The position numbers were made by a program, and so were the translations under genes. Below are positions 4,583 to 56,779 of a stretch of 64,000 nt of DNA, one piece after another. The notes under the pieces were generated by a model. That model was not told the origin of the DNA, made no database searches, and worked only from the letters and a program-made list of their open reading frames with translations. Origin of the DNA: a virus; IMG/VR virus record IMGVR_UViG_3300028388_001285, positions 17,998-81,997 of that record; one strand, 5' to 3'. The number at the start of each line of letters is the position of its first letter. Positions within the stretch are counted from its first letter, which is position 1.

Positions 4583-6055
4583 ATGGCAACGACTAGAAGT
4601 CAGTTTATTATTAAACATTACGAAGGTTTCGGTGGTAACTTTATTGATTCTCAATACTTAGGCGCTTCTTACGAGACTGGCAAACCTCACGTATTTGAAA
4701 ACACTCTTATGAAGATCTACTCTTCTAAGAATCGCTTCTTTACGGGTAAGTTGCTTCTTGGCATGACCGGAGCGAAATCATACGGTACTGAAGAAATCGA
4801 CACCGAAATTTATCGCTGGCGTCTGCAAGGAGCAGAGGAAAGGTATGCGCGTTCATTGGAACACATTGACGCTTCTAACACTACCCCTGGTCTTAACGGA
4901 ACAACTTTCAAGATCAAATTGGATCTTGATTACTATGCCAACCCAGATGTATTGATGCCAGAAGATAATGATTTCCCATTGGAGATCGTTGATGGCCCAG
5001 TACAAGATGGCGAAGGTTATATCTACACTGTTAGACTCCAAGGAGATGACCCAACAACCTTCCTGCCTACCTACTTGTTAGATGAAGGAAGAGAGTTCAA
5101 CAAGGTTTGGACAAGCGTACCCAGTGAATACAACGAACGGTTTGGTACCCAACAGTACCCTGCAAGCTTTATGCTTGAGAACCAAGTTGGAGCATTCGCT
5201 CAGAAATTCACTGTTACAGATAAAGCAATGAGAGACGACGGACGTCTCGGTATCAATTTCTTATACACTGATCCTCGTACTAACAAGGAAATGAGTGTAG
5301 AGAAATTCCTGCCTATGGCTGAAGCTAAGATGCACGACGAACTGTATATGGGCATGGAAGCTCAATTATGGTACGGACGTAAGCAGACTAAGCCAGGTCA
5401 CAAGGATTACTGGATCAAGACTGGTTCAGGATTAAGAGAACAATTAGCCGATTCATGGATCGAGTACTACAACTCAGTACTTACCGTTAATCGTCTGAAA
5501 GACTACCTGATGGATATCTTCTTCACACGGGAAGATGAGCCGAATAGAAAGGTAGTAGCTATGACTGGTACACTTGGATCTATCATGTTCCATGACATGT
5601 TAGCAGTTGAAGCTTCCTCTTTCCTGACTGTGGATACAAACTTTACACAACAGTTAAGTTCTAACCCACGTCACCTGTCTTTCGGTGCGCAATTTACGCA
5701 CTATCAAGGACCAGAAGGTATCGAGGTAACCTTGGTCAAGAACCCACTCTATGATTCACGGAAGTACTGCAAGCGTATGCACCCGCAGTATCCTGAATTC
5801 CCAATTGATTCCATGCGGATGACATTTTTGGACTTCGGATCACAAGAGAAAGCTGGTAACATTATGATGCTTAAGGTCAAAGACACTTACCGTTACGGTT
5901 ACGTAATGGGAACTGTTGGACCGAATGGCCCCGTTAAAGGTGGACAAGCTGGTGCTCTGATTGCAGGGTACGACATGTTTACTGAAGGCACCGCAGGTGT
6001 CTGCGTGAAAGATGTTACTCGTTGTGGTGAATTGATCTATGACGACCAATACTAG
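4583..6055 (+). CDS. Major capsid protein
   Basis: 490 aa after the scaffold, with crAss-like MCP motifs (YRWRLQG, KTGSGLREQL, SFGAQFTHYQGPEGIEVTLVKNPLYD). Confidence 0.88.
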   Translation: MATTRSQFIIKHYEGFGGNFIDSQYLGASYETGKPHVFENTLMKIYSSKNRFFTGKLLLGMTGAKSYGTEEIDTEIYRWRLQGAEERYARSLEHIDASNTTPGLNGTTFKIKLDLDYYANPDVLMPEDNDFPLEIVDGPVQDGEGYIYTVRLQGDDPTTFLPTYLLDEGREFNKVWTSVPSEYNERFGTQQYPASFMLENQVGAFAQKFTVTDKAMRDDGRLGINFLYTDPRTNKEMSVEKFLPMAEAKMHDELYMGMEAQLWYGRKQTKPGHKDYWIKTGSGLREQLADSWIEYYNSVLTVNRLKDYLMDIFFTREDEPNRKVVAMTGTLGSIMFHDMLAVEASSFLTVDTNFTQQLSSNPRHLSFGAQFTHYQGPEGIEVTLVKNPLYDSRKYCKRMHPQYPEFPIDSMRMTFLDFGSQEKAGNIMMLKVKDTYRYGYVMGTVGPNGPVKGGQAGALIAGYDMFTEGTAGVCVKDVTRCGELIYDDQY

Positions 6056-6059
6056 AAAA

Positions 6060-6155
6060 TAAGGAGTGCTAGGTCTAGCGACCGATTAGTGCTACCAGTG
6101 ATCGTATAGCTTGCGTTCGTTGTTAGTAGTAGTTATGGGGCTAGCCTAGTTCTTA
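6060..6155 (+). other. Candidate structured RNA in the MCP-PAS intergenic region
   Basis: Outer arms taaggagtgctaggtctagc (6060-6079) and gctagcctagttctta (6140-6155) pair. They enclose two hairpins: cgatta/tgatcg (6083-6104) and atagct/agttat (6106-6136). Confidence 0.45.
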
Positions 6156-6168
6156 CCAACCGAAAAAT

Positions 6169-6750
6169 ATGACCGGAATTGTTGAATTAGGATTAGCGAT
6201 TATATCCGGGGGTGTAATAACCGCCGTATTTAACTATTTCATCAGTAGGCAAAAAGTCAAATCTGATGTTTTCGCACAAGTAGTAGAGACCTGGAGACAA
6301 GATAATGAACGTCTTAGAGCCAAAGAAGCTATGCTAGTGCAGAAAATAGATGAGTTGAAGTCAGCCTTGGATGAGTTAAAGTTTAAGTTCCAGCTATTCC
6401 AAACGGCTCAAATGTCATTACCAGTACCTATGTGGATTAAGGATTTATCCGGAAGGATGTTAGCTTTGAACGATGCGTACGTGGAAATGATATTAGACTC
6501 AATGAACCTTGAGGTGTCCGACTATATAGGCAAGTTCGATAGGGATATATGGCCTAAAGAGGTTGCTGTTCACTTTAAGGAACACGACAATACTGTTAAG
6601 TTAACCGGTAAAGCTCAGATGTTCTCTGAGACCTTCAATCTTAATGGACAAGAAACTACTTGGAGGGTTATCAAATACCCAAGATTCTTCGACGGAAAGA
6701 TCGTCGGGATAGCTGGTATTGCGATACCGCCTCCCGATTTTTTATTTTAA
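6169..6750 (+). CDS. Membrane-anchored coiled-coil protein with C-terminal PAS (PAS_4-like) domain
   Basis: N-terminal hydrophobic helix (LGLAIISGGVITAVFNYF), a heptad coiled coil, then the PAS signature LPVPMWIKDLSGRMLALNDAY...YIGKFDRDIWPKEVAVHFKEHD...KYPRFFDGKIVGIAGIA. Confidence 0.8.
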   Translation: MTGIVELGLAIISGGVITAVFNYFISRQKVKSDVFAQVVETWRQDNERLRAKEAMLVQKIDELKSALDELKFKFQLFQTAQMSLPVPMWIKDLSGRMLALNDAYVEMILDSMNLEVSDYIGKFDRDIWPKEVAVHFKEHDNTVKLTGKAQMFSETFNLNGQETTWRVIKYPRFFDGKIVGIAGIAIPPPDFLF

Positions 6751-6809
6751 TACCTTATTTATAACAATAAGGGACTTCTAAACTAACAAGAAGTAAAAAT
6801 TTAGGAATT

Positions 6810-7656
6810 ATGGCAAGTGTAAGTAAAAAAGTATTTATCTATTCGATCCCTAGGGAAACCGCTACTAAGGTTTCTGAGTGGGTCAACTCTTCTTCTGGAA
6901 AGAAAATGCAGAAGACAAGATAAATTGGAATTAAAGTGGAACTTGGAGAAAGGTTACCTTACTAACAGACCCTGGAAGAAGGGCGACTCTATCCGTGAAG
7001 AAGATATGACCTACTTTCAACGTAAGTCATGGAAACTGAATGATGGTTCTACTATGTTAGACTTAGGAAACTTTGATGATGAAATGTTTTATTACATGGC
7101 ATTGGATTCTAAGTTTATCGCTAACTCTGAGAAGGAATGGAGAGGGCATAAATGGCCCAAAGCCACCCACTATATAGCAATTGAAAATGAAGCTGATGAG
7201 ATTAAGTACAGAAAGAGCCGAGTGAAGACGAAAGCTTTTGCTATGCTTGAGTCTGATGACTTAACTCCCAGCATGAAAGAAAAGTTCTGCGCTATACTTG
7301 GACTTATATCTTCGAATTCGAAGGTAACAGAGGAGCAGACCCACAATTTATTGTTTGATTGGATTGAACAATCTGACTATAGACCTGGTTCGAACATAGA
7401 TAAACTCACCGAATTAACTACTCTATTAGAAACTGCTACTGGCAGAGAGGATATCGAGGCTAGATATACGTTGAAACGTGCGATAGATAATCGTGTTGTA
7501 TTTGAAAAACAAGGTGGTTACACCTGGAACAAGGCGACAGGAGCTATTGTACTTGGAGATACGTATGCGGAAGCCATTGAGTTCTTCTTGAATCCGAAGA
7601 AGCAAGCTCTGGTAGAAGAGTTAGAAGAAGAAATAAAAGCTAAAACTATAGTATAA
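6810..7656 (+). CDS. Conserved crAss-like protein downstream of MCP, apparently frameshifted or internally deleted near 6915-6925
   Basis: ATG 6810 after an AT-rich leader gives MASVSKKVFIYSIPRETATKVSEW...KKMQKTR then TAA 6921. The gene body (QDKLELKWNLEKGYLTNRPW...) continues in another frame to 7656. Confidence 0.6.
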
Positions 7657-8375
7657 TGACTATACGTGAAATGGGTTATGATTTTGATCTGAAGATTGAC
7701 AAGGTAGCGTCCTTCTCAAAAGAAGATTTTAACGTAGCTGAGAAAGATTGGTTACTTAATGAGGCGCAGAATGTCTTTATCAAGACTCGATATGGAATGC
7801 ATAACTCGTATGGGTTTGGGTTCGAAGTAACTCAAAAACGTATAGATGATTTATCTAAGTTGGTTGTGAAGTTTCCTTTGCAGCCGGCGCTCGTACCTAC
7901 TCTGAACGAGGGCATCTATGAGGTATCCTTGTCTCAGCTAGCGTACGATTATATGTTTTTTATTAGGGGGCAAGCTCTGGTGGATAAAGAATGCTCAAAA
8001 TGGGCATCACTCAACCTGGTGCAACATGATGATCTGAATCATCTACTATGCGATCCCTTTAATGATCCGGATGAAAAGGAAGTCCCATTTAATTTCGGGC
8101 GTTCCACGTCTGTTGAAAATGCGGCTTCTATCTATATTTATCCTGGGCAGCTAACAATCTATGAGGTTAAGTTGGAGTACATTCAACACCCGCCCAGATT
8201 GAACTCTGGAGGCTATGTGTACATCGACAACATAACCTATCCTGAACAGGATTGCATGTTGGCTGAACATACTCATCCCGAAATTGTGGATATAGCTGTA
8301 GCTATAGCATCCGGTATAATAGAGCATCCTGATTATGTGAGTATAAAGAACATGAAATTAAAGGCTCACGAATAA
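7656..8375 (+). CDS. Tail ring/collar (head-tail connector) protein
   Basis: Motifs EKDWLLNEAQ, FEVTQKRIDDLSKLV and HPEIVDIAVAIA; crAss-like synteny. Confidence 0.7.
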   Translation: MTIREMGYDFDLKIDKVASFSKEDFNVAEKDWLLNEAQNVFIKTRYGMHNSYGFGFEVTQKRIDDLSKLVVKFPLQPALVPTLNEGIYEVSLSQLAYDYMFFIRGQALVDKECSKWASLNLVQHDDLNHLLCDPFNDPDEKEVPFNFGRSTSVENAASIYIYPGQLTIYEVKLEYIQHPPRLNSGGYVYIDNITYPEQDCMLAEHTHPEIVDIAVAIASGIIEHPDYVSIKNMKLKAHE

Positions 8376-8400
8376 TTAGAATAAATTAAATTAATTAATA

Positions 8401-9762
8401 ATGTATAATAGACAAAACAACAAACGCGCTGTAGAGACGTATTTGGTAGGTGCCGCAAATGGTACTTTCTACAATACTGCTGGAAATGGCAACCATATCA
8501 ATAACTCCACTACTGGAGCTTGTGTGTTAGCTGATGGAGCTATTGGCGTATTTGATGGAAGTGGTTGGGGTTCAGCTGGCCTTAATGTGGCTACTGTTGC
8601 TACTCCTACTGTAACAACTTCCCCTGTGATATATATTGCGCAAGGTACTGCCTATTCATCCAACCCTGCTCAGCATCCTGGTGCTAAATTCCCACTCTGG
8701 AACGAACCTTATGTACGTTCAGCGGATATCAATGGAAACAATTGGATTGTTGCTACTAAGCAAGACTACGTTGCTCCATTACACGAAGTATGGCTGGTTG
8801 GAGATGATTCCGGTACGGGAGTTATCACGGCTAGTGATGAGACTGAATATACAATTTCAGTAGCATATCGTGGACGTATCGCGGATGAGTTGTACTCAAG
8901 TGAAGCTGCTGCTCACTCTAAGTTCAGTGTAACCACCCCGAACTTTACTGCTCTGTCAACTGCTGAACCAGTGGATTGGCTGATCCAGAATTTAGTTTGG
9001 AACATCAACCGTAACTCACGGGCAATCGCTATGAATCGTACCCGTTTCCGGGGCAACGATCCTATCGTAGCTTTTGCAGTAAATACTTCTGGTACAGACG
9101 GTACCGACATTAGTGGATTGAATGCTGCTGGTGGAGAATTCCTGCCTGTAGTTAATACTACCTTTGGCACTCGTGGAATCAACACCACTATCGCTAACGT
9201 AGCTTCATTGAAAGCTGCTGCTGATGCAACCCCAATCCCAGCTGATTCTCATATTCTTACTGCTGATATTACTACTGCTGGTACTGCTACTGGCGGCGTA
9301 GCTGATGCTATCCTGATCATGGCACTTGACCGTGCTGAAGCTTGGGAAGATCGGATTCAACAGAAGAAGTACTACCTTGACGTAGCGCTGAGAACTGGGT
9401 TTGACTACAACTTAGTCAACCTGTCACGGGAAGTTGCTGGACGCGAAGGTGAAGGTCAAGGCGCTAAGCTTGATCGTATGTACAGAAATACTCACGGACA
9501 ACGTAAGTATAATCTGGATCACACCGAAGATCCTGTAACTGAATTTCCGTCACCATTTGTTACTACAACAAATTATGACCAATATATTCTCGAACATGTA
9601 GATGTCAATCAGATTGACACTTCTAACATTAGCGAATCACCGAAGAAAACAATCGTGTGTTTCCCAGCCGGCGATTCTCAGGGTACTGCATTTGAAAACT
9701 GCATTGCTAACTGGCTCGCAACTGCTCCTGCGGGAGCAAACGCTTGGAAAACGCATAGCTAG
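8401..9762 (+). CDS. Virion structural protein (auxiliary capsid-like position)
   Basis: 453 aa, Ala/Thr/Gly-rich, codon usage like the MCP, GEGQG motif near the C-terminus; synteny. Confidence 0.5.
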   Translation: MYNRQNNKRAVETYLVGAANGTFYNTAGNGNHINNSTTGACVLADGAIGVFDGSGWGSAGLNVATVATPTVTTSPVIYIAQGTAYSSNPAQHPGAKFPLWNEPYVRSADINGNNWIVATKQDYVAPLHEVWLVGDDSGTGVITASDETEYTISVAYRGRIADELYSSEAAAHSKFSVTTPNFTALSTAEPVDWLIQNLVWNINRNSRAIAMNRTRFRGNDPIVAFAVNTSGTDGTDISGLNAAGGEFLPVVNTTFGTRGINTTIANVASLKAAADATPIPADSHILTADITTAGTATGGVADAILIMALDRAEAWEDRIQQKKYYLDVALRTGFDYNLVNLSREVAGREGEGQGAKLDRMYRNTHGQRKYNLDHTEDPVTEFPSPFVTTTNYDQYILEHVDVNQIDTSNISESPKKTIVCFPAGDSQGTAFENCIANWLATAPAGANAWKTHS

Positions 9763-27091: not shown

Positions 27092-27980
27092 ATCGGTTCT
27101 ATACGATTTGTCTACGCTTGTTCCAGAGAACGAATGGAATGACTTAAAGTTTACGGAGTGAGCTATTAAAGCCCTACGTAAGTTGAAGTCTGAAGTTAAA
27201 TTAGAAGAGGCCGTAGCTATTAGGAATCTAGTAGAACACAAAGCGCAGCTGCCTAACGATCTAACGTATCTTACGCAAGTTGCCTACCGACCAGAGTTAC
27301 CATCTGATGAGATAGAGGAACTCACACGAATCATGAATCTCCAAGGGGAAGAGTGGAACACAGCGGTAACAGACCATATGTTTAATCCTAGCGGACTTCC
27401 AGAGAAAGCCGTACGATCATTATATGCGTCTGGTTTGAACAAGTGGTACCCAATGCGAGCTTCTAGTTCTCCATTTATGTCTGGAATACTTATTACTGGC
27501 ACTCCTTACAACAGCGTAGATTGGACAACTCCTAACTTGCAGGGGGATCACGAATACATAGTCGATTCAAGCATGTGCTTAACGTCGACGCTCTCTGATG
27601 CGGTGTTAGCTATATCGTATATGAGATACCCCGTAAAAGCTAATGGGGACACACTTATACCCGACGATGAGGATTTGAAAGAAGCAATAGTACACTACTG
27701 TCTGTATAGATACTGGTTGACTAGAAGTTTCTTACGTGAACCAAACGCCGACAAAGAAAGAGACTATCATCTGTCACGGTACGAGGTGTTAATGGCCAAG
27801 GCTGGCGGAGAATTAAACTTACCTACTTTAGATGAATTAGAAAACCTCAAGAACCTGACTAACCGATTAGTTCCTAGATCTAATCAGTACGACAACTTCT
27901 TTAGTAAGTTGAACAACAGGGAATCTGCTGACACCATGTCACACTGAGGTAATCATGATACTAACAATTATGCCAACTAA
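27063..27980 (+). CDS. Tail tubular/ring protein (P22 gp4-like), TGA=Trp at 27159 and 27945
   Basis: ATG 27063 gives MTRIRYTSIKSVL...FTE-W-AIKAL, in frame with 27183..27947. Motifs LIPDD and PTLDELENLKN. Ends TAA 27978-27980. Confidence 0.75.
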
Positions 27981-30900
27981 ATTTAACAGTTCGAATACAT
28001 TTCAGGCTGGTATGAACAAGGATGTTAATCCTAAGTTTCAACCTAAGGGAACCTATCGGTTCGCTCTGAACGCTGTGTTAGAGGTTAAGGAAGGTTTGCA
28101 AGGTAGTATACTTAATGAGATTGGTAACACATTCTGCCAAGTGATTCACGATGAATCAGGCGCTACTATAGTAGGACATGTACTGACTGATACTAGAGAC
28201 ATAGTATTGTTCCTAGCATTCCATTCTGGTAACTCTGCGATAGCAACTTGGAACCCTGATACATGTGAGTACACGGAGTTGCTGAAAGGTAACTGCTTAA
28301 ACTTTAGTACTAAGCATCCAGTGTTCGCACAGTTTAGAATACGAGGTGGTTGTGACAGGGTAATATACTTCACGGATAAACACAATCCATATAGAGTATT
28401 TAACTTAGACCAACTCAACAGATATAAAGATTCTGACGGGGATGTAGATTGTGATAGATTACTTTACTCTAGGAACGTAGAACGCCCTTGCATTAATGTT
28501 GATAGAATCAACGAAGGTGGCGGACTCCTACCCATAGGGGCTTATCAGGTAGCTGTTCAATACTTGGACGAAGAACTTAACCCGACTAATTATTTTTATA
28601 TTACTGATGCACTTTACCTTGCAGATGAATCACTGAACTCTCTCAATGAAGAGATAGATGGTGGATTCAATATCGTAGACCCAGACGCAAATATACTCGG
28701 CGGAGTACCTTTAGCTAACAAATCAATTACGTGGTCGCTGTCTGATCTAGACACCAACTTCTCGTATTACAAGTTAGCTATATTGGTTTCTGAATCTGCT
28801 ACAGGAAGTCTCAGTTCTGCCTATGAAACAGACGAGCAGACTATATCTGGTACAGAGGATTTCTACACGCTAAGTAACTTAGAGGATATCAACTTTACTT
28901 CTATAGACAACGTCATTGTGGATCGTCCTGCGATAAACAAAGTAACTGACCATGCACAGTTGGATAACAGATTGTGGTTGGCAGGTACAATGAATGACGG
29001 ATACGATTGGGCAAAGGTGCAGCAAGCAGCTAACACTATCACTTCTAAGTGGACTACGGATACAGTTCCAACGAGGGAGACCAAACGGTTTCCAGAGTAC
29101 CAAGTTAAGTTGCGTAACTACATGCGTGATGAAGTTTATGCATTCTCTATATGGGGAGTGTTTGCTAATGGTACAAGAACTCCAGCTTTCCATATCCCTG
29201 GAAGGGAGACGATGGTTAACCCAGGAATAGGTGATGAGACTGATAATTACAGAACATCGGTACCAGCAGGAGCGAATTGGGATACTTATCCAGTAACTAT
29301 TGGAGGCTTGAATGCTTACAATAAAAGTAACAGCATAGCTTCACTAGAGGATGTGAAACACTTAGGTTACGAGGCTTCTGACATAGGAGAGACTATTGAT
29401 CGTTGGAGAATATACAACACTGCTACGTACGATGACTTTGAGAGGACTGAAGGGGAGATGGCATACTACGAGTGTAACACTAGGTACCCTGACCTGAAAG
29501 ACTGTAGCGGGGATTTCATATTCCCAACTACGACAATAGACGGTGAAATCGTACCGGCAAATGTACGTCATCACAAGTTTCCTGATACTAAGACTAGTCC
29601 ATTATTTAGAGCTGGTGACTTAGATGCGCTAGCTTGTTTAGGTATCAAATTTGATCTGTCACAGTTCTTGGCGGACGTAGGAGATATTGAGGTTGAAGGT
29701 TGAGTTATCGGTGTAGCAAGACGTAACGCTACAAACAGAACTATATTTGACAAAGGATTACTGTTTGCTGGACAAACTTCAGACAAAGACCTTGGAGGCG
29801 ACACTCCACGTATAGGCAAAGATGATGTGATCTTCACAGGTTGGTTAGCTGACAGGGCTGTTGGACATAACCTAACACATACACCTAAAAGTGCTTGGTA
29901 CTTCTCACCTAAAGAAACACACGCACGACCAGCAATTGCAGGTTCGTACGTAAAACTGGAACGTTTACACCCATCAAATATCGGTTACATACAAAGTGAC
30001 ATACGATACTGGTTCGGTACTCTTGGTACCTCATTAACCCCAGTGTTTGATTTTGGTGGTCGTGGACAATTCTTACCACTAGACACGTACACCTACATGG
30101 ATCGAGTGGAATTTTACACGGTGGAAATTATCGACGGACCACCGCTTGGTAGTAGTAACCCATGAGGGGTAACACAAACTAGCGCCTCAGGTACTAAAAT
30201 ACGTACCCATATTTACTCTAGACATATGCTGAACCTAGAGTTTGAAGAAGACTATAGGTATCACCAGTTTAGTACCGACATACAGGCAACTAGTGGAGTA
30301 CGTAATGACGCTTGTTATGTAAGTATTAAGACTAACAACGAAGTGTACCCCGATCTAGAATCTGTTATATATCATCCAGTATCTAATTGTTATTACACCA
30401 ATGGCACTACTGTCTACGGTGGTGACACATTTATAGGTAGATATCATACGACCACAAAAAGCACGTTAGATAAAGGCCCTGATGAAAAAGACTTGGGGGA
30501 TAGAAGTTTGATTGCTGCGTATGTTGAATCAGAACTTAACCATGAGTACAGGCATGACGGTATCTTAGAGGATTGGCAGTCCACTTGGAAAGGTGAACTG
30601 GTTTACAATAATCAGAATAACAATGAAACTATCCGGGAGTACTTAAGCCCGGAGATTGACTTTTCTGATATCGAAGCAGACAGAAACCCAGCTGATTACT
30701 TTGGATACAATAAAGATTTCCAGAAGTTGAACAACGAGAAGCCTAACTTCCCATTGTCAGACTCGTATGATTACTGTGATGCTTGTCCAAACAAATATCC
30801 ATATAGAATCATGTACTCTGAGAAATCATTCCAAGAAGAATTGGTAGATAATTATTTAATTGTAAAGGCTAACAACTACAGAGATTTAGATGGAGACTCC

Positions 30901-32262
30901 GGACCAATTACCAGACTCTTCACCGACAAGGATAACCTATTCGCACTATCCACTAAAGCTTTATGGACTGTACCTACTAGGCCACAGACGTTGCAAACAT
31001 CTGAGGGTACTATATATGTAGGTACAGGAGATGCGTTGGCACTACCGCCAAAGCGTGTAGTTTATCCTGGGTTTGCTTACGGAGGCACTAAGGATATATT
31101 GTCACTAGTCAGTACAGAGTATGGGAGTGTATGGGCAGATAGTCTAACAGGTAAGGTATTTCATTGGCGAGGACAATTGGAAGAGATCTCTTCTAATGGT
31201 ATGCGTAACTGGTTTGAAGAGAATACTAAGTCTAAGATAAAGGAACAGATGTTTGCTTTCTCTTTGGAGAACAACATACCAAGCGTACCAACTGATTTAT
31301 ATGGTGTAGGTCTAGTGGGCACGTATGATCCTAGATATCGAAGATACATATTAAGTTTCCGTGACTACGAGATACTTGACATGGAGAACTTCGAAGGTGG
31401 TGTGGAAGGATTTGAATCATTAACCTCTTACAATCCTAGTAAGCTATACTTTGACCTAACTGCGGGAGACTTCTTTAGGGTTAAGTACATTGCTGCTACT
31501 GGTTGGTACAAATTACCTATACCGTATTTGGATAGAAACACATTCCGTAACAGATCTTGGACGGTGTCATATTCATTTCCACACAAGGCTTGGGTGAGCT
31601 TTCACTCATACTTACCAGCATACATGTTCAATGATGAAGATACATTCTATACTGGATTACATAATAGTCTGTGGATGTTCACACATAACTACGGGGAACA
31701 TCAGAAATACTATGGAAAGAAGTACGACCATATACTAGACTTTATCGTGAATGAGCAACCAATACTGGATAAGACTTATAGTAGCCTTAAAGTAATAAGT
31801 GATATCAGTCGGTATGATGAGGAACACGAGAACTATATAGAGTCTCTGCTAGAGTTCTTCACATATGGTATGTTCTACAACTCCAACCAAACTAGTGGTA
31901 AGCAACAGATATTTAGGAAGGACGGTTCAAGTCCATTCTTGTCTACATATGATAACCAGAATCAAATGGTACTGGCAGAGAAAGTAGATGAGCACTGGAA
32001 TATATCTGGGTTTAGGGATCTAGGTATAGGACATAACTCCTACCCAATATGGACAAACGCTTGGGATGAAGTACAGTCTGACTATTATATAGATAAGGTA
32101 CCTAACCCGGAAGCCATTGAGACAGACAAGAGTCTGTTTAATCACGGCAGGTTTAGGGATGCTTGGCTAGGCGTACGACTATACCATGATGGTGAAGTAC
32201 AAGGTAACTACAGAATAAACACTGACCTAATTAATACACTACAAAGAATATCTTATAGGTAA
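27970..32262 (+). CDS. Tail stabilisation/muzzle protein (P22 gp10-like), ~1430 aa, TGA=Trp at 29701 and 30163
   Basis: Motifs NTFQAGMNKD, CLNFSTKHPV, YMRDEVYAF, YPYRIMYSEKS, SWTVSYS and WVSFHSYLP. Three track ORFs are in one frame. Confidence 0.88.
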
Positions 32263-37193: not shown

Positions 37194-40100
37194 ATGCCAG
37201 AAATAAAAGATGTCGTAAGGGCCATTCTGCACCAAAAGGCGCAGCAGGGTTTTCTTGCTGGAAATCCTTCTGTAAGCAGAGAGGGTTTTGTAAATCTAGA
37301 TAAATTTGGGAAATATGACAAGACGCTCACACCTGGAACATGGGAGAACGTCAGAAACTTGTCCCCAAGAATGGCTCAGGAGTACCACAGAGGTACAGAG
37401 CAGCCATGAAACCACAAATATGCAAGGGGGATTGCCAACTTTGTCACAGGTACTGCTTCTAAGGTTGGAGCCACTGTAGGTTTTGCAGCCGGAGCTCTCG
37501 GAGCGCTAGCAACCGGAGAGTTAAGTACGGTCTACGATAATGCTGTAGTGGACGCCTTTACGAAGGCTGAAGCGGCTATGGAGATACCTATTTACGTAAA
37601 AAGACAGTATGCTGAAGGCAACCTTATACATAAGATGGGTACCACTGAGTTCTGAGCTAAGGACTTAGGAGAAGGTCTTGAATTCTTGGCCAGTATGTTT
37701 ATACCAACTTACGGTATAGGACTTGCAGGTAAGGGTTTACAGGCTGTAGCTAAATCTGCTAAAGTGGCTAAGGGATTGGCTCGCGGAGAGCGCGTGCTTA
37801 CTACTGTACTGAACAGTACAGTTGAGGCAGGGTTTGAAGCCAAACATGCTAACGATGAGATTAGAGACCAGCTAGCTAGGCAGAGGGGGTACATATCATA
37901 TGATTTATTACCACCTGATATACAACAGGAGATCTCGGTTTTAGCGGGACAAGCTGCTGCTAGAACTTTCTGGGGCAATATGATTGGTCTGATGTTACCC
38001 AACTATCTGGAGTCTGGTTGGGCTAGGAGTATTATGGGGTTTGACAAAGCAGGTTCCAATGTACGACAAGCCATACGTAAGAAAGCACTATCCCCTGACG
38101 ATATAGTTAAGGCTAAGTCCAAGTGGAAAGCAGCTACTAAGGGTCTGGTGTCCGAGGGTCTTTGGGAGGAGAACTTTCAAGAAGCTGTAGGACAGTTTGA
38201 AGCTAGATTAGCGGAAGGTAAGATCGAAAGAGAAGACTACGCTAAAGAATTAGTACGTAACCTCAGCAACAATGCATGGGGTTTTGCTCGTGCAGTACCT
38301 AACTTACCGTTCGCACCGTTTGGTGTAGACTTCGGTATAGCTGCTAAGGCTGGCACTGAGCAAGATGCTGGTGCCACTGCTATCGCACTCGGAGCTATCA
38401 TAGGTTCTGGAATGAGTACTGTGTCGCAAGCGATGGACAACGCTAGACTGCGAGAATCAGCTGAGCGTGAGAACTCACTTTGAGGTGACCTAGTGAAGTT
38501 CAAGGAAACATTAGACAAGATACTGGTTGACGATCAGAAATCTATATATAAAACTTTCGGAACTGAGACCGACGAAGAAGGTAACGAGACTCCTATCTAT
38601 GTTAATCCTAAGACTGGAGCTACCGAGATTGACCCAGATAAATTACGTAATCTAGCTCTGGCTAACACTGTAGACTTAAACTTCTTTGATGAAGCTGTGT
38701 TTGCAGATGTTAACAACGATGAGTTGTGGGCCACATTCAACGATAAGATGGCGGCAGCCTCATATGGGTGGTACTTAGGATCATCCGGGATATCTAAAGA
38801 AGATGCACAAGACTTACTTGAAGGTAGAGAAGATGCCAATGAGATACTGTCACTCATGGACTCGTTTGAAGAAGCGGAGAGGGACTCCCAGACTTCCGAC
38901 GATATTCGTGGTGAGCAGGTCGACAAGAAATTTAAACGGTTCTTGCATAGGATCAATTACTTCCTTAATGCTCGTGGCAAGATGCTGGACGAGATGTATA
39001 GTAAGAACCCTGAGGTTATCGGTCCTATGGTGGAAGATAATCAGGCAGCTTTACAGAAGGTAACTAACGCTAGCTCTAGGAAAGCTTTGAAGAGTGAGTT
39101 TGTAGAAGCTGTAGGTGGTATAGATACTCTCAATAGAGAGGTTAAAGAACTAGAGACTGAGTTTGAAGCTGTTAAGAAGACTGACCCAGCTAAGGCTGAT
39201 GAGATAGCTAGGAAGATAAGTACTAAGAACTATCTAATGTCAGAGAGAATGCACGTAGACGGCTACGATGCAAACTTACAAGGTATAGATGCGGAGAACA
39301 ACAAGGCGCTTGTAGATGAGTACTTTAGGTCTAAGCATAACAACCCTACTACCTTAGGTATGAACCCATCAATGGCGGTAAGCTACCAGTCATTACGGGA
39401 TCGTAAGTACTATAGGTTAGGTAAAGCTTACATGGCCGCTAAGGATATCAACGACATAGCTGATGAATTTTTAGAGGAAAGAGATATTGATGACTTGAGT
39501 GTAGGTATTGAAGCGCTCAGAGGATCTGCTAAATATTTTAATGGTGAGAACTCTGATGTAACTGCTGCTACCGAAAAGATAAATACAGCGTTAGATGAAG
39601 AAATAGACAAGATAAACATAGGACTTCAGGAAGTAAACGAAGCCATGTATAATTTGGCCGGTGAAAACCTGGGTGCTGAAGAGACGAAGTTAGTAGCTAC
39701 GCATCTGAAGGATACACAGAGTCAGTTACAAACACAGATGGGTCGTATTAAGTTGTTACGCGAGGAGATGTCCTCAGCGCATGAAGCTATTAATGCTACT
39801 GACGATGAGTACGCTGCATGGAATACTGAGGATGGTCTGAAGATGGAACACTTCCGTAACCTGACTAAGAAGATATGGGCATTAGATAGCTTAGCTCTGG
39901 AATCATTCGATAACCTTGCTAAGACTATGCAGTTCATGCAACTGTTGTTAGGAATAGAAGCTGCCTTCGAGGATAGAACTGACATCAGCGATGACCTAAA
40001 GGCAGATGTAGCTGCTGAAATACTACAGCTTAAGGAGATACTTAAAGCTTACAGAGAAGCGGCTGAAAAGAATATGCAATCCAGAGCCTCGAAACAGGTG

Positions 40101-43100
40101 AGAGCTTTGCGGGAGTTAGGACAAGTAATGAATGAGGCTACTCTGAAACTTGAAGCTCCAAGACAATTATTGCTAGATGTATTTGGTAATGATGCTATCA
40201 GGGAGTTCGAGAAGCAATTTGGAGACGAACCTTCTTTCGAACAGTTCGAGGTATTGATGTCCCTGTTCTCAGAGAGAGCTAGTGATGGGCAAAAGCAGAA
40301 GATGCGTGAAGCATTGCTGCGCACAGGACAGTCGACGGTTTCAGCATTGTCTACTCTCAGTAAGGGATTAGCTGATCCCATGAATCCTACGGATAGGGGG
40401 AGTAAGATACTAACAAATTACCTTGCGAATCCCATTAAATATGCGTCCGCAATTGTGATGCCACTACTTGGAGGAGGACTGTTCACACCAGAGAATACTA
40501 TATTCTGGGAGTATAGGGAGAACAAAGACATAGCAGAATTTAAACACCAACTTGAAAGTATATCTTACGCAGGTTTATCAGTAGACAAAGCTAGTAAGCT
40601 GAAAGCATTCTTCGATGCACATACATTAATGCGTGGATTACAGTTGGCTGGGGAGTTTCTCAGCGCTGAGAAAGCTAACACTGCTAGGATACTTGAGGAA
40701 GAGGTGAAACTGCATAAGGTATTGTCTAAGGACAAGGCTCCTGAAGACGTTATAGCACCTACTCCACAGCAGTATGTAGCTTACCAAGAGGCCATACGAT
40801 TCTTATTCAAACCATTAGCGTCCAAGTGGGCGAGTAATACATTCTATCTTGAAGGTTTCCCTGGGTCTGGCAAGACTAAGGTAGCTGCTAGAAGGATAGT
40901 TGACTTGTGGAAAAGTTTGGAACATATCACAGACAGTCAGATTTATACGGCTGGTAACACTGTGGCGTCATCAAAGATTATCCACGAGGCTGTTAAGGGT
41001 ACCGAAGGAGGTGCCACTACTATTGAGGATCTGTTAGCTGCCGACTTAACTAACACCAAGTTAGTCATAATTGATGAGGCTCCAGCTTTAGAGAGAAGTG
41101 TAGCGTTAGCTTTAACGAAGAAGTTAAATGCTGCTAAGGTGAAGACTATAATCCTGGGCGACCCTGCACAGGTTACAGTAGATGCACACCCGTTTTTATT
41201 AAACGAAAAGTACATCAGAATAACTATGTCAGATCCACTGACTGCCAGTTATCGTACTAACATACCAGCCATCTATGATTTCTTCATCAACTTTAAAAAC
41301 ACTTCAGCGGTACACAGACAGTTAGCTGCTACTAGTAACATGTCGCTAGGGGATGTGATTAAACCGCACTCAAATGCTCTCGGTGTTGTAGGAGATACTG
41401 AGAGAAGTACGATGCTTAGGGCAATTGCTAGACCTAGCAGCAGATCGAAGTTACTTATAGTAGCCAATAAAGATCAGAAGCAGCGATACCTCAATGAGTA
41501 CTTCAAAGATCCTGAGTACAATATATCTGATGTAGAAGTATTAACTTACGATCAGGCTAATGGTATACAGGCTGATGAGGTGTACATAGATATGCCCACA
41601 ACTGCATTGGACATCAAAGGCAATAACTTCAAACCTATTGGATACAACAAGGCTATGTATACTGCTGCAAGTAGGCCGGTTAAGTTCTTGTTCGTGTTAG
41701 GCTCATTAGTACAGACACAGGTAGACAGTATGTTAGACTCTACCGTGCAAACTGCTGCTAGTGAACTGCTTCAAAATGTGGAGCAGTATGAGGGTATATT
41801 AACTGCTAAGGGTAATGCACATGCAGCCCTAACAAATGAGGCTGTAGATGGTACGTTGTTCGATGACATTGATGAAGTGTTTGATGCAGCGAAGACTACC
41901 GACAAGGAAACTACAGACGATGATATAGAGATTGCTAGACAAGAGCGAGGTAGCCCGGATCAGGAACTGCCTGAGGAACCAGAAGATGTTGGTGCTATAG
42001 AGAAAGAAGATCTAACTGAAGAACCAGTTGAACCTACTAAGTTGCCTAGAGTGACTTCAGAGGTAATCGAATATGACTTCAAGTTCCCACAGAACTCTAA
42101 CATTAAAGTTGACAATTTAGTAGCCACAGGCTCACAGTTTAAAATAGTAGCTGCTGTTTCCAGATCACCTAAGAAATTTCCGGTAGCACACTACGTAGTG
42201 GCTCCAACTATAGGTGACCCTAATAGATATGTGGTAGTAGCTATGTTAGGTAACGATGATTACCAATCCGGTGAGATGGGAATGTGGCTGAAACGTGAGG
42301 AAAATAAATTCAAGGCTGATCCGAATAGAGGGCCAGTTGAAAGTTCCACACGTATCAGAATGGATGAAGATGGATTTGATTGGGGGCCAGACCTCGACAG
42401 AGCTGTTATAGGAGAAGGTACGTTAAGTAATGTACAAAAGTTACAGTATGTATATGACCGTAGTGCTGAGACAAGCATGGAGTCTGACATACACAAGTAC
42501 TTGGATACGTTCTTCCCAAATGATGACACTTATCGTACTGGTAAGAAATTAAACTGGGCAGCGTTGAACCCATACATTAAGTACAAGATATTTACATCTG
42601 ACTTTGGACCTGATGCTGCATCTAAAGTGCCTAAGGGACAATTTGTGCCTAGACCTGGTGTACCATATGCGGTGCTTCAGTTACCGATGCCTAACAGCGA
42701 GAAGAAACATTCTCCACAATACATAAGACAGCAGCGCCGTAAGGTTAGGATGGATCATCCGTATATAAAGACTCTTCGTGAGTTGTACGATAACATCATC
42801 ATACTTGAGGCTGGACTAGGACTTGAGTACGGTACGGAGGAGTTCAATAAACTCATCAAGGCGAACGCAACTAGATTTGAGCTTGGACCCAAAGAGAATG
42901 GGTTCCCAGTGAAGTTGCAAGATAACCCTGCGATGCCTAAGGAACTTGAGGATCTAACTGCGGAGCAGATTAATGCTCTGGACAGCTTAGTCAAGTTACT
43001 ATATGGGGCTGAATATTCTAGAGTTGTTGTAGAGACTAAAGCTGAAGCAAACGCTTTCACAAAGTCTGGGGATGGTAGATTCTATATAGACAAGGAATAT

Positions 43101-46100
43101 ACTGGTAATGGTTATGCGTTCATGGAACGTGTGGCGGAAGATTCCTCTATCGCTCAACCTGAGCCATACAGACAATGGCAGATGAGGGGTGGTGTAGGCG
43201 AAGCTTCAACAGCATTCAACGCCATAGCTGTAGCTAATGGTAAGATTGAAGGACTTAATATTAAGGTTAAGAAGCGTAAGAAGACTAGTATAGGAACTGT
43301 TGAGTTCTACGTTGGTAAGTCATTACTAGCGTTCACAGAGAACACTCGTAGATTCATGGCTGCCATGCGTGGTAGGTACGAGGATACGCGGAAAGAGGCT
43401 AGTGACTTCCTAGGCGAAGCTTTACCTGAGAAGTTTCCCAGAGATTGGGAGACAGCTATGAAGGTATTAGCTAAAGTATATGATGATAGTAATGGTTTGT
43501 ACGGTGTTGATCGTGCAGATATTATGAGGGCACAGAAGGAACTAATTGCTAAACCAGTCACTACAGACTTGTTGGCACAGATCGTCACGCCTACTAGTGA
43601 AAGACACCCAAGCTTAGAATTACCTATCTATCGAAAAAGTTTCGGACACGACAAGACAAATACAGGGTTTAATGACCTTGGAAGTAACTTAAATAACAAA
43701 GACAATAGAGCTAGGATCGCTGAACAGGTGCACGGTAACCTTTCTAGAGTGATACCTACAGTAGTTACGGGCAGAATAAAGAATACAGTTACCGTGACTG
43801 AGCAACAGGTACCAGTTAAAGCACCTAAGAAAGTCAAGACACAATCTCAATTCAATAAGCTAACTGTGGACCAACAGTACAGTAAGATAGTCGGACTGCA
43901 TAAGCAAGGACGGGTAGATGATGAAGTGCTGCAATGGGCTGCCGAAGCTAAAGAAGATAATGATAAAACCTCGCTTGAAAAGATATGGGAGCTTGGTAAC
44001 ATGACAGATACTATGCGGTCTATCAGTACAGATACTACACATGTATCTAAAGAAGAGGCAACCAAAATATTAGGTCGATTAGACTTAGAGCATAGGACAT
44101 ACGAACTATCTGAATTAGTGGATAAGTTGACGCAATTCATGTCACCATTTCATAGGAAGTTGATGTGGGCACTGACACACGCAATAGATAGTTTAAGTAA
44201 ATCTGGTATCACTGTAGATTTAGCACACGTAGCTAAGGGAGACTACGCACATGCACTTGGACTTAGATTCCCTGACGGAAGGATTGGACTATATACTGGT
44301 AGGATATTCCAGACAACTAAGAAATACACTGGGTTCAAGTTGGGCAGGGTACTGGCTCATGAGTTAATACATGCTATTACATCCGATAAATTATATCGGT
44401 TTGAGACTGCGGAAGAAGAGTTCACTGGACGCGAGCGCGAGATACTACAACAGTTATTCGATATATTCACGTACGTTAAATCCCTTAAAGGTGTACGTGG
44501 AGATATGGATAATTTGCGAGAGTTTGTTGCGGAGGTATTTGCCAGCGAGAGGCTTGCAAGAGATCTATCTAGAATAGAATTACCACCCGAACTGAGGTAC
44601 AAAACTAACTCTAGGGGCATCCTAGATACTGTTAAGAACCTCATCACTAACTTGCTAAGAATAGTGATGAAACCATTCTTACGTACTAGGTCAGCAACGG
44701 AAGCTGTAATCAATTTAGCCGGAGAACTTATAGACATGCAGCATAGAGCTGGTGTATACGATGACCCTAAGAAGGGGCATCATGCACTGTCACTGGATGA
44801 CCCAGACGGGTTCCAGTATATCAAGACTAACTTTGGTGGAGTCGAAGGTTATAGGATAGCCAAGAACTTTATCCTAGAGAGGTTGGCATACTATAAGATG
44901 ACTGATGATGACTCCGGTAGAGAGAAGAGTGTTGGGTACTTTATACCAGTTGATGATGCTGGATTCGTAGCCTCTAAAGAGGAGATCTACTATCAGATAC
45001 ATTCTGATATCAATTCACATATAGCATTCAATAGAATGTTAGCTAAGAACTTGGTACGAGATATTGCTATGGATGAAGCTGCGATAGAGTCAGCCACCAA
45101 CGTACGTCAAGAGAGGCTAGCCAAGATTGCTAAGGAGATATCTGAAGCTAAGTTAAAAAGGGTGCAGGACGCAATACCTGCTTTCGAGACCCTGATGCGT
45201 AACAATAGAGTGACACATCGTCCAGTCTACTTTGAAGTTATGAAGACTATCTTCCCTAACTGGTCGATAGGAAAAGAGACTCAGTTGGACAAGTACAGGT
45301 ACGACACTAATGAAAACTTAATACGTGAGATGATGTCTGTGGAGGGTGTAAACCTTAAGGAGCAGATCATCGACAACGAGTACCAGAATAATGTACATAA
45401 GTTAAGCGATTCAGTAAAGGACTTCTTGTCAATAGTACAGTACACTACTAGTGATAATAAGATTGTAACAGTTAATCCAAGCTACGCTTATGTACGGGCA
45501 TTGCAACTATTCCGCAAGTTAGACTTCAATACTATTGTAGATTTACAAGACTTTGAAGATAGGAGAAAAGAAATAGAGAAGACTGAAATCATAAATGATG
45601 CTACTACCTCTATACTGGATAAGTTAGCTGACTTATTACAAGATGCTACGTACACTTATAACATGCCTAAGTATGTCAATGTGATTATACATAGACCTAT
45701 AGGGGCTTTAACAGACGAGTATTACCTAATACTGTCTAATACGGAGGAAGTAACTAACGTAGTACTTCTTGAAGAAGCTAAGGAGATAGCAAAGAATGAC
45801 CCTGATTTCAGAATTGTAAAGAGCAGTTCTTATATACTCAGAGATTTATATGAGGAGGCAAACATGCCTATCACTCCTAAGCAGTTCAACAAACTATATG
45901 ACAGAGCACTAGCTAGGAATACATTAGCTGAGCTACACACATTGTTCTCATCTCAGAAGGAGACCGAGTTAATGATTGCTTCTAAAGGTCTCGACAAGAA
46001 TGGTAAAAAGAAGATACGATACATCAAAGCTAAGGACTTAGGTGTTAATGTATCTGTACGTAGGCACATAGCTGATGAGTTAACTGAGCTGAACGAGGAC

Positions 46101-49100
46101 TTAAAAAGTAAAGGTGGGTTAAAGAACTTTTGGAACAGTCGCGTAGGAATAGAGATGGATGGACTGCTCACTGGAAACAGACAAGAGAAACTAAAAGGTA
46201 TATACAAGTTCTACTCGATGATGGGACTCGGGCATCTAATCCGAGAGCATAATGTGAAGTACGCTGTAAGATCAATAGATGGTACAGCGAAGACTATCAT
46301 AGAGCTTATGACCGACATATCAAATACCTTAGCAGATACCCGTAAGACTAAGTTGTTAGTGGACGGTGAACCTCAGGTGGATGATAGGGGTAAAACTATA
46401 TACACTAAGACCTCACGTACAATGGAGGATGCATTAGCTAACAATAACGGACGTATCTTACGACTGTCCAACATTGTCAGTAGGAATACTGAACTAGCTA
46501 GAGCCACATCAGTTAGAGATGGTGCAGGTAAGACTCTGTATAAATATAATAACTCACACTATTTGTATGATCTGTTCGATGCTATGATTAGCAAGAGAAG
46601 GGACAAACATGAGTTTAGAGACAAGGGATTACCACAGTTCTTGAAGTCTGAATACTTCTCACATAATATATTTGTGAATGGGTTGAACTCATTACACACT
46701 AACCTGCTATACCATGATGTGTTCAGAAATGAGAATGTAGGATCGACTAAGGTATACGGAAAGGAGACTGCTAAACACCGAGCCATACGAGAATTCGTAG
46801 CGGGCTTTGTGGCCACACTGGATGCCAGTGGTAAGGCTAGAAGATATAACCAATTCTTCTACCCACCCTCTGACAGAAGTAAGGTGTTCTCAGCGGAAGT
46901 ATCCGCACTGACACCGGACGAGATTAAGGAAGGGTTGTTGAAGATCATACAACAGTTCAAGGCTAGACCTGTAGTCGGACACGTTAAGAATTATAACAGA
47001 AAAGCTTATACTAATCTGCGACTACTTGAATCAGCTGTTCAGGAACTAGGCGGTGACATCAGCAGTATCTCTGAGAAGAAACTAGTGAACAAGATGTTCG
47101 ATAAGTTAGGAGAGGAAGCTGTTAAAGCTGCTAAAGAATTTATTGCTAATGAGGTAGACATCCCCGGTGATTTCCATAAAGTCATGAGCGACTTACGTAA
47201 AGGCAAGAAGTTTATCGTAGACGTCAAGTCTGCTTTTAAGTTTCATGATAAGGAGTTTGCTGGAAGTAGTCCAATACAAGATTACAAAAAGTTACCAGAT
47301 GGTAGCAGAGCATACGATGTAAAGGTAGAACAGATACTACCACTAGTAGATGCGTTCGTTAAGAATAACTATGTCAATGGATTCTTTTTGAATCAGTTAG
47401 CTGTAGGAGACTCAGCATACTACAAGCAGTGGGAGGATGATATCGTTAAACGTATGGCTGGACCGACTGCCTCTGGGCAGATTGGCTTAGTTCATCCTGA
47501 CTTTGGTATGCGCGAGAATTATAAAGTACTGGTACTAGGAGATGCAGAGTTAACTCCTGAGAATATTAGAAAGTTCTTGGAGAGATTCTTGAAACCTGAG
47601 GATGTAGAGGAAGTCATAGAAGCCTTCAGTAAAGGTAATATAGACTGGACAGATGCACAAGGATTCATAACTCCTAGGAGAGCGCAGGAATTACGTAAAG
47701 GATTTGGTAGAGCCTACAAGGTAGGACGTGTAGTCAAACCTGTACACTTCGAGATACGTACTGATTGGGTACCTCTAATGAACTTTGGGGAAGAATCTGC
47801 CGCAAGTGCCCTGATGAACCCTGCCCTTCAAAAACAATTAGAAGGAAAGAATTTTAGGATATCTCCTGTAGATCCCACTGTAATTGAGGAAGGTATCCCC
47901 ATCCCAACTTACACCAAGTACTCAGCTGTTGAGTTGAGTGACGACTTAGCTGATATTGATACTGGTAGATTTAAGAGATCACTAGGTATTATACGCCAGC
48001 GTATGGAAGAGTTAGGAGTAGATGAGGTTATTTTTGGTTCAGGTATAAAAGTAGGAGCACCTAAAAACACTATAGATGTTGAAGCTTTTGTACGTGGGGA
48101 TAAGGTAGAGCAGAACAACATACTCACCCTTTCAAACAGGGACATGAGATTACAGCTGAACCCTTGGCACGATCCAGATAGCCACGTAAGTATATACACA
48201 CAGTTGATGTACTTTATAGGTATCTTAGGAGAGAATGATGCTGATGCTGGTGCTGTATATGACTCACTAGCTAGTGTAATTAAAGAAGGAACAGATTTAG
48301 CAGACGAAACATTAGATGATGGCTCAGGATTTAGAGCCGCAGTAATGAGTGCGCTGGAAGGTAGGGGTAATGAACGTGCCCTGCAACTGGTAGAGTCAGG
48401 ACTATCTTTTGACAACCCGATACTACAGAAGAAAGCTTTGGTAGCATTAGTTAACATGATTGAGAAGCTTACTATCAGGGTGAAATTCCCCGGAGGTAAG
48501 ATGGTCCTTCAATCTGCTTACGGTATACAGAAGTATGGTGTTAAAAAGCTGGAGTCTGGTGCTAAGCATAGAGGCGAGGAGCTCACGTATGGTGAGGATG
48601 AGAACGGTAGGCTATATGCTGAAGTAATCATGCCTAAGTCAGTGTTGACTAAGAAACAGATTGACGCGATTAATAAAGGTAAACCTCTCTTTGCATTCCA
48701 CGATGCGTTTGGATTTAGAATTCCATCCACTGAATTACACTCAGCTGTACCATTAAAGATAGTAGGTACATACGATGACTATGGAACCAATGTTATCATT
48801 GCTCCGAAGGAACTTGTACCACTGCACGGATCAGACTTTGACGTGGATTCACTCTTCATAGTATGGAGAGACAGTGCTAAGAATAACGTAGAGGTATTAA
48901 ATACTGACAAGCCACTCAAGGCACAGGATGTGATAGATGGCAAGTTCACTAATAGAACGTTGGTAGCTGAGGGAGATTACATAGGCTACGCTGGTGGTGA
49001 ATTAGACCCTGAGTTTTTACCTAAGCTCGACAGGATAGAAGAGGAGTTGAAATCATTGCGTACCAGATGGGCTAGAATAAATAACGAGCCTAAGGAATAC

Positions 49101-56194: not shown

Positions 56195-56779
56195 CTATTT
56201 TCCTTTCTTCAAGGTGACCCCGAATCCGAAACCTTGCTTTGGACTTGCTGCAAATAGAGTGGCAATTATGTACCTATCGTACTCCTTTTTTCCAATCTTG
56301 ACATAGGGTATATTGATTATAGCCTTGTCTGATTGGATAATGGATTCTTGCAGATAACGTAATCTAACAGCCAGAATCACCTTTTCTCGTGCTTTCATAT
56401 TGTCAGCTATTTTCAAGCAGTTAGTCAACACTTTTCGGTAAGCTTCGGATTTGTCTCTGTAGCCGTAACGTTTCAACAGCCATTTTATCCGTTCTTCCAA
56501 TGTAGTAAGTGGTTCTGGTTCTACTACTGTTGATTGCTTTACCAAAGGTAGTCTAGTTTCAAGTTTCGAAGGCTTACAATAGTCACGCCAGCCCCTGGTG
56601 TGAGATAAAAGCTTATGTACCTTCTCGTGGATGTGAAACATCCAGAAAAAGGTAAGTACAAAGCCTACAATACACACAATGATCCAGTTTGACTCGCCAG
56701 TACAGGTGTTACCCATATACTTTGCTGTCACAAGAAGTGTGTCTAGATTCTCAATAGAATCTCCAAATAGATTTCCCAT
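56195..56779 (-). CDS. Hypothetical membrane-anchored protein
   Basis: One hydrophobic helix (WIIVCIVGFVLTFFWMF); basic C-terminal part. Confidence 0.6.
   Translation of the reverse strand: MGNLFGDSIENLDTLLVTAKYMGNTCTGESNWIIVCIVGFVLTFFWMFHIHEKVHKLLSHTRGWRDYCKPSKLETRLPLVKQSTVVEPEPLTTLEERIKWLLKRYGYRDKSEAYRKVLTNCLKIADNMKAREKVILAVRLRYLQESIIQSDKAIINIPYVKIGKKEYDRYIIATLFAASPKQGFGFGVTLKKGK

Follow-up and report, generated by a model that had tools for sequence, protein, structure and literature searches.

The timing of lysis sets phage fitness. Antiholins and lysis inhibitors, such as RI and RIII of phage T4, which act on holin T, and S107 of phage lambda, are accessory proteins that bind the holin and retime lysis on a signal. 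T4 RI senses in the periplasm and T4 RIII is soluble; we know of no PAS domain or small-molecule input in RI, RIII, or S107. In phage VP882, the PAS input of VqmA controls the switch to lysis. A study that probed ten residues of VqmA as its DPO site found F67 and K101 to be essential (10.1101/2019.12.19.881847).

Here we analyze a gene that follows the major capsid gene of a crAss-like phage. An earlier note, made from the DNA letters and their translations, had described its product, P0001, as a stand-alone sensor with a transmembrane (TM) helix, a coiled coil, and a PAS domain, and had proposed that it is either a lysis timer or a decoy for host histidine kinases. In the literature on PAS proteins in phage lysis, we found no study of the P0001 family, its homologs in phages phi14:2 and MA9V-2 included.

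A PAS gene in the late block of a crAss-like phage

The DNA analyzed (the window; 64,000 nucleotides) spans bases 17,998 to 81,997 of an 81,997-bp IMG/VR virus record, whose completeness CheckV puts at ~81%. Pfam and PHROGs scans identify the source as a crAss-like phage that encodes a terminase, a portal, and a crAss-type major capsid protein, and the window also carries genes for tail ring proteins 1, 2, and 3/4 and for the muzzle protein. The capsid protein is 32% identical to the major capsid protein of Flavobacterium phage FpV4. A blastn search of window positions 4583 to 8400 against a phage collection returned no match.

The PAS open reading frame (ORF) begins 113 nt after the capsid stop codon (Table 1). 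It is open from the first ATG downstream of a stop, resembles its neighbors in composition (GC, 0.40; GC3, 0.43), and is a genuine gene. The hairpin predicted in the spacer between the two genes has no U-tract, and the spacer contains no terminator-like or promoter-like site above chance; the simplest reading is therefore that the capsid and PAS genes share a late transcript. The genes of the PAS-containing block of phi14:2 belong to leftward middle/late transcription units (bioRxiv 10.1101/2020.03.07.982082).

The gene 3' of the PAS gene is a single ORF of ~330 aa in three relatives (L034, L035, and L037; see below). In the window it consists of a 37-aa ORF (6810 to 6923) and a 243-aa ORF with a TTG start (6925 to 7656) in a different frame, with ~55 middle residues gone; a deletion with a frameshift, an assembly error, or deliberate shortening may account for this split. 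The muzzle profile is also spread over two ORFs, with profile positions 3 to 250 in 27955 to 29703 and positions 925 to 1220 in 30226 to 32262, and a 112-aa ORF (29827 to 30165) lies between them. At the end of the late block, positions 38493 to 54905 (plus strand) form a single ORF of 5,470 aa at the place where crAss-like phages encode the virion RNA polymerase and cargo proteins. If real, this ORF would be an unusually large fusion.

Table 1. Features of the PAS locus and other membrane protein genes of the record (window positions unless stated otherwise)
Feature	Position	Strand	Evidence or remark
Major capsid protein gene, crAss-type	4583..6055	+	PHROG 11589, major head protein, E = 1.6e-78; left flank of insertion site
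Long imperfect RNA hairpin in the capsid-PAS spacer	6064..6154	+	MFE -38.8 kcal/mol, z = -2.96; none of 200 shuffled sequences folds as stably
Gene for the 193-aa TM/coiled-coil/PAS protein (P0001)	6169..6750	+	ORF and translation; PAS_4, E = 1.6e-9; >100 homologous clusters of like architecture
N-terminal TM helix, ~residues 3-26	6175..6246	+	Kyte-Doolittle 19-mer score 2.0; predicted N-out/C-in
Juxtamembrane and putative coiled-coil helix, predicted cytoplasmic, residues 27-82	6247..6414	+	AlphaFold2; conserved motif D-N-x-x-L-R at 45-50
PAS domain, residues 83-186	6415..6726	+	Pfam, AlphaFold2, Foldseek against the PDB, column counts, VqmA PAS profile match
Right-flank late gene, conserved	6810..7656	+	Single ORF in relatives, split here; tblastn synteny and frame translations
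Other TM proteins of the record	record 8400-9221 (273 aa); window 56195-56779 (194 aa) and 57091-57393 (100 aa)	latter two -	

P0001 joins a membrane helix and a long helix to a complete PAS fold

The Pfam family PAS_4 (PF08448) matches residues 83 to 185 of P0001 with 38.4 bits, against a cut-off of 23.1. No kinase, helix-turn-helix (HTH), or other output family is matched in Pfam even at E ≤ 10, and HisKA, HATPase_c, HAMP, GGDEF, and receiver domains are all absent. AlphaFold2 (AF2) was uninformative without an alignment (pLDDT, 53); the model used instead was built on an alignment of 76 homologs and has a pLDDT of 92.3 and a pTM of 0.74. It shows an unbroken helix from residue 2 to residue 82, with pLDDT values of 85 to 97 across residues 41 to 70, followed by a PAS core at residues 88 to 186. 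Strands at 88 to 92, 96 to 100, 150 to 158, 161 to 174, and 177 to 186, with helices between them, form the five-stranded antiparallel sheet of this core. The protein ends 7 residues past the core and has no C-terminal HTH. The long helix is most likely a dimeric coiled coil.

A Foldseek comparison of the model with the PDB gave 375 matches at E ≤ 0.001, and among the matches listed there are PAS or LOV domains only. The top matches are BvgS (6zj8; best, E = 1.1e-6), NifL (2gj3), and VqmA (6ugl and 7dwm). Together with the Pfam match and the hydrophobic N-terminal helix, these results bear out the description in the earlier note of a TM helix, a coiled coil, and a PAS fold at the C terminus with no output domain.

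To place the protein in the membrane, we compared 98 sequences of the family. Their hydrophobic helix has its median start at residue 7, behind an N-terminal tail with a median length of 6 residues and a net acidic charge. Lysine and arginine average 0.3 before the helix and 3.3 in the 15 residues after it, and they are more numerous after the helix than before it in 93 of the 98 members. P0001 is thus predicted to be a single-pass protein of the inner membrane; under the positive-inside rule, its short N terminus lies outside (periplasmic) and its coiled coil and PAS domain lie in the cytoplasm, so that any signal sensed would be intracellular. This predicted topology fits a regulator better than a classical holin. 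A reading as an i-spanin (Rz-like, with an N-in topology and a periplasmic coiled coil) was rejected, as the charge bias runs in the opposite direction in those 93 members.

The P0001 family is confined to viruses

With P0001 as the query, an exhaustive HMMER search retrieved 7,241 representatives at a cut-off of E ≤ 0.001; 1,009 of them, some of which are multi-PAS proteins of cells, also pass E ≤ 1e-10. Among the 150 best matches, about 100 are proteins of 187 to 250 aa that align end to end at 30 to 45% identity; the rest are long cellular multi-PAS proteins matched in their PAS repeats only. Two long cellular matches carry the source name "PAS domain S-box-containing protein." The TM/long-helix/PAS architecture is common to more than 100 sequence clusters of 190- to 215-aa proteins. 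In the ESM Atlas, ten look-alike clusters hold 67 to 1,142 members each. Eight of these clusters are recorded as 99 to 100% viral; a ninth lacks recorded taxa, and the tenth is labeled Bacteroidota. Viral members of the Atlas clusters number about 2,000. When 185,579 prokaryote species, represented by one genome each, were scanned by motif, no true family member appeared; the only matches were two weak ones to unrelated PAS proteins.

These searches show that the family is confined to viruses and, where the host is known, to phages of Flavobacteriia/Bacteroidota. The earlier note had left room for the homologs being fragments of host kinases; the HMMER, ESM Atlas, and prokaryote genome results reveal a virus-only, phage-conserved family of full-length proteins, which excludes that identity for P0001. 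Its view that PAS domains are unusual in virion operons does not hold for this type of protein, which forms a large viral family and is not rare in phage late operons. Searches for a PAS-less short form of the N-terminal half and for longer fused forms of the family found none, both weak negatives. Two family-bearing IMG/VR records, L009 (100% complete) and L040 (97% complete), are classed as proviruses, and the family thus also occurs in temperate phages.

In the 76-sequence alignment (A1), P85, W89, and N101 of the PAS domain are invariant, and P87, K91, D124, W128, D140, E154, K169, G180, and G183 are conserved in at least 90% of sequences. P0001 is homologous over its full length, carries all invariant residues, and has the family motifs PxPxW.KD, N, DYIG..D...W, KYPR, and GIxGIA. 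Conservation extends to the N-terminal half. The TM helix has a pair of small residues at positions 13 and 14 (Ser-Gly in P0001 and Gly-Gly in the family consensus), with Gly or Ser at position 13 in 56 of 76 sequences and Gly at position 14 in 54; in the juxtamembrane motif, N46 is found in 54, L49 in 57, and R50 in 49 of the 76.

A few members (P0004, P0103, and P0149) reach ~270 aa through a C-terminal helical extension. That of P0004 corresponds to a precomputed Pfam assignment, PF19964 (EAD11, effector-associated adaptor domain), and those of P0103 and P0149 are similar; such an extension hints at recruitment of another protein. A Foldseek search of BFVD also returned two helix-plus-PAS proteins of similar size, S0A2B2 and R9ZZL0, from Cellulophaga phages phi18:3/phi19:1 (E = 8e-9/2e-8), which the sequence searches, including tblastn, had missed. 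The GenBank label of the phi14:2 homolog, g078, is "PAS fold protein."

The PAS domain has a putative ligand pocket

In a PDB comparison with the family profile, the PAS domain of Vibrio cholerae VqmA ranks first among the true PAS matches (E = 1.3e-4). Alignment of the family with VqmA of phage VP882 by hhalign gives a probability of 80% and an E value of 1.4e-5 over 82 columns. Four of the ten DPO-site residues, VqmA K23, Y36, F67, and D71, align with family residues K91, Y104, F136, and D140. These positions are conserved in 73, 66, 65 (as an aromatic), and 71 of 76 sequences, respectively. For VqmA K101, the hhalign result contains no aligned lysine, and family K169 does not align with it. 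The comparison supports a putative ligand-binding pocket of the VqmA/BvgS type and provides no evidence for DPO itself. The PAS domain is probably ligand-binding.

The PAS gene is an optional cassette among close relatives

We compared the locus with six close relatives (L005 and L034 to L038), whose capsid proteins are 67 to 78% identical to that of the window. Only L005 carries a PAS gene at the same post-capsid site. In four of the six (L034, L035, L037, and L038), the capsid gene leads to the next conserved gene through 320 to 460 bp without a PAS gene; L036 ends inside its capsid gene, which leaves the insertion site unreadable. The PAS proteins of the window and L005 are 38% identical and the flanking genes 57 to 78%, indicating a cassette that is exchanged or fast-evolving. 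Alignment of the post-capsid spacers of the relatives, aimed at locating the insertion borders, revealed no conserved sequence. The PAS gene is thus shown to be an optional accessory gene in late (structural or lysis) operons.

In L005, the PAS gene yields an intact protein provided that two TGA codons, both at conserved tryptophan positions, are translated as tryptophan. That the frame is kept across these codons points to selection on the protein. Late genes of two relatives, the PAS gene of L005 (1910 to 2500) and, in L038, the gene that follows the PAS gene elsewhere (6435 to 6760), have in-frame TGA codons where tryptophan is conserved, which suggests TGA-to-Trp recoding in these phages; the window itself is open under table 11. 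The major capsid gene of L038 is broken by ~780 bp (4780 to 5557); the insert contains an HNH-like, Cys-rich ORF of 150 aa and may be an intron or homing element.

Homologs are linked to lysis genes in some lineages

To examine the genomic context of the family, we compared 21 non-redundant loci from two cultured phages, IMG/VR contigs, and metagenome contigs. Apart from the syntenic L005, they have essentially the PAS gene alone in common. In phi14:2, g078 lies directly upstream of the GH19 endolysin g077, which has no signal sequence, and overlaps its start by 4 nt; a TM protein follows. In MA9V-2, an unrelated 218-kb phage, the order is GH108, a PG_binding_3 lipoprotein, PAS, a TM protein, and a protein with a lipobox and a C-terminal TM segment (u-spanin-like). 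On the uncultured contig L010, the PAS gene is followed by two lipoproteins, a TM protein, and an Amidase_3 protein, the last of these four genes after PAS. In L006 and L018, a DUF5675 protein is encoded 2 to 4 genes downstream; DUF5675 has no sequence relative in the PDB and was therefore not counted as an endolysin in the stricter statistic.

Whole records were scanned for six endolysin families. In three of the five records with a recognizable endolysin, no more than 2.5 kb separates it from the PAS gene (expected, 0.8; P ~ 0.02). The adjacency is marginal (P = 0.07) when the null is limited to late regions and DUF5675 is counted. In two largely complete genomes, L040 (G009; 97% complete) and L041 (G010), the sole recognizable endolysin, of the M15_4 family, is ~13 kb from the PAS gene, and the six-family scan recognized none in the complete provirus L009 or in L042. 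A small TM protein is encoded within two genes of the PAS gene at ~10 of the 21 loci, against ~25% under the null (P ~ 0.02). The PAS gene directly follows the capsid gene in three lineages (the window, L005, and the non-crAss L007) and precedes a 1127-aa tail gene in L009.

The suggestion in the earlier note that homologs might lie next to endolysins thus holds for phi14:2, MA9V-2, and L010 and fails for the two genomes with a distant endolysin, as it does for the window phage. The link between the PAS family and lysis genes is real but partial. In phi14:2, virion tandem mass spectrometry (MS/MS) notes exist for g074, g080, g081, g083, and g085 and none for g078; since most of its virion-protein neighbors have such a note, the g078-type PAS protein is probably not a virion part.

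In the window, the neighbors of the PAS gene are capsid and tail-ring genes rather than lysis genes. No endolysin was found in the 82-kb record by tblastn with GH19, GH108, PG_binding_3, and Amidase_3 queries, by a Pfam scan for DUF5675, Amidase_3, Peptidase_M15_4, Phage_lysozyme, Amidase_2, and GH108, by Pfam/PHROG scans of ~40 ORFs, or by phmmer searches of the PDB with four candidates. Because the record is ~81% complete, a missing match does not show that the phage lacks an endolysin; the gene may be encoded in the fifth of the genome that the record does not cover, or its sequence may have diverged beyond recognition. Of just four credible membrane proteins in the whole record (G000), the PAS protein alone is encoded in the late block.

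A possible regulator of lysis timing

We tentatively read P0001, at somewhat less than an even chance, as a ligand-sensing regulator of lysis timing that would couple an intracellular cue to a membrane step, by analogy with antiholins and on account of the position of the gene in a minority of lineages. In the proposed mechanism, an intracellular small molecule would bind to the PAS domain, in a pocket homologous to the VqmA pocket, and the signal would travel via the rigid helix to the membrane helix. There, the conserved small-residue face would pack against the phage holin or another small membrane protein, and membrane permeabilization, hence host lysis, would be delayed or advanced. Such a protein would be the functional equivalent of an antiholin or holin modulator that takes a chemical input from the cytoplasm. 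In the window phage, where the gene stands alone behind the capsid gene, the PAS protein would act in trans on lysis genes that are unrecognized or lie in the missing ~19% of the genome. The lysis timer of the earlier note is accordingly kept in part: lysis genes lie near homologs in some lineages, none lies near the window gene, and the predicted topology suits a regulator more than a classical holin.

The wider form of this proposal is that virus-only, membrane-tethered PAS receptors of Flavobacteriia phages, probably thousands of them, use a VqmA-like pocket to read an intracellular small molecule and shift the moment at which the holin triggers. We offer it as a conjecture that has perhaps a little over a third of our confidence. 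If it is true, many environmental Bacteroidota phages gauge the condition of their host before they lyse it, through a chemically gated lysis clock that has no described counterpart in the phages studied so far. Cultivable systems for this idea are Cellulophaga baltica with phi14:2 and Chryseobacterium indologenes with MA9V. Whether or not the function is another, the family is among the largest uncharacterized virus-confined sensor families.

Possible too, though on the unlikely side, is that P0001 is a sensor anchored in the membrane that serves a different late or conflict function, such as superinfection exclusion, anti-defense, or a link between the state of the cell and assembly or packaging. 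The frequent location of the gene inside structural modules (post-capsid in the window, L005, and L007 and before a tail gene in L009) would suit such a role, as would its optional, cassette-like distribution, which is typical of accessory "moron" genes. EAD11 is typical of conflict systems, and some members carry this adaptor domain at the C terminus; it is found, however, in only ~3 of ~100 clusters, and no defense or anti-defense neighbor was recognized. The lack of a virion MS/MS signal for phi14:2 g078 also weighs against this explanation.

Interference with host signaling is improbable. Here P0001 would be a membrane-tethered decoy that heterodimerizes with host multi-PAS histidine kinases, or a sponge for a signaling ligand of the host. 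PAS domains commonly dimerize, and the PAS domain with its preceding helix resembles "PAS domain S-box" repeats at 27 to 32% identity, in up to 10 matched stretches; models of Bacteroidota multi-PAS proteins give TM-scores of 0.72 to 0.77 over residues 8 to 191. This identity to cellular PAS units is nevertheless lower than that within the family, which has its own invariant residues and its own TM and juxtamembrane motifs, and late expression would leave little time for rewiring host regulation. Direct support for the host-kinase decoy of the earlier note is limited to the ~30% identity to multi-PAS host proteins.

We think it quite doubtful that P0001 is itself the holin, a single-TM hole-former whose oligomerization would be gated by the cytoplasmic PAS domain. 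In favor, the product of this late gene is small, with a single TM helix followed by a hydrophilic part predicted to be cytoplasmic; it is the sole TM protein in the late block of the 82-kb record, and its phi14:2 homolog is encoded directly upstream of a signal-less endolysin. However, every lysis-linked locus encodes another small TM protein as a candidate holin, and the close relatives in which the gene is absent must still lyse. The TM helix is only moderately hydrophobic, and the folded cytoplasmic part takes up ~165 of 193 residues, unlike in known holins. No holin family is matched (Pfam at E ≤ 10 and PHROGs returned PAS families and a PHROG of unknown function only), and the neighbors in the window are not an endolysin.

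A decaying or functionless insert is very hard to credit: the gene is optional among relatives and the gene just downstream looks damaged in the window phage, but the ORF is intact with all family-invariant residues, its composition is like that of its neighbors, and the recoded relative L005 keeps the frame.

Comparison with known systems

The closest described relatives of P0001 are phi14:2 g078 (YP_008242302) and MA9V-2 gene 249, which belong to the same family and have the same order of TM segment, helix, and PAS domain (tblastn E = 1e-19 and 2e-8). Like the window phage, phi14:2 is crAss-like, and its host is flavobacterial. The phi14:2 and MA9V-2 genes lie in lysis clusters, whereas the window copy follows the capsid gene, and identity is only ~28%.

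Bacterial membrane PAS sensors, including BvgS (6zj8), Aer, and the multi-PAS hybrid histidine kinases of Bacteroidota, have the helix-PAS unit in common with P0001. Unlike them, P0001 has no HisKA/HATPase, HAMP, GGDEF, or receiver domain, and its family is virus-only.

VqmA (V. cholerae, 6ugl/6ide/6kju; VP882 VqmA_Phage, 7dwm) is the closest solved PAS protein by sequence profile and is also among the top Foldseek matches. It has the motifs P-x-P...K-D, N, G-x-x-D, and F...D in common with the P0001 family, including the four DPO-site residues. VqmA is a soluble protein whose output is an HTH DNA-binding domain, whereas P0001 has no HTH and carries an N-terminal membrane helix. To antiholins, P0001 has no likeness in sequence or fold; what would be alike is the proposed working principle.
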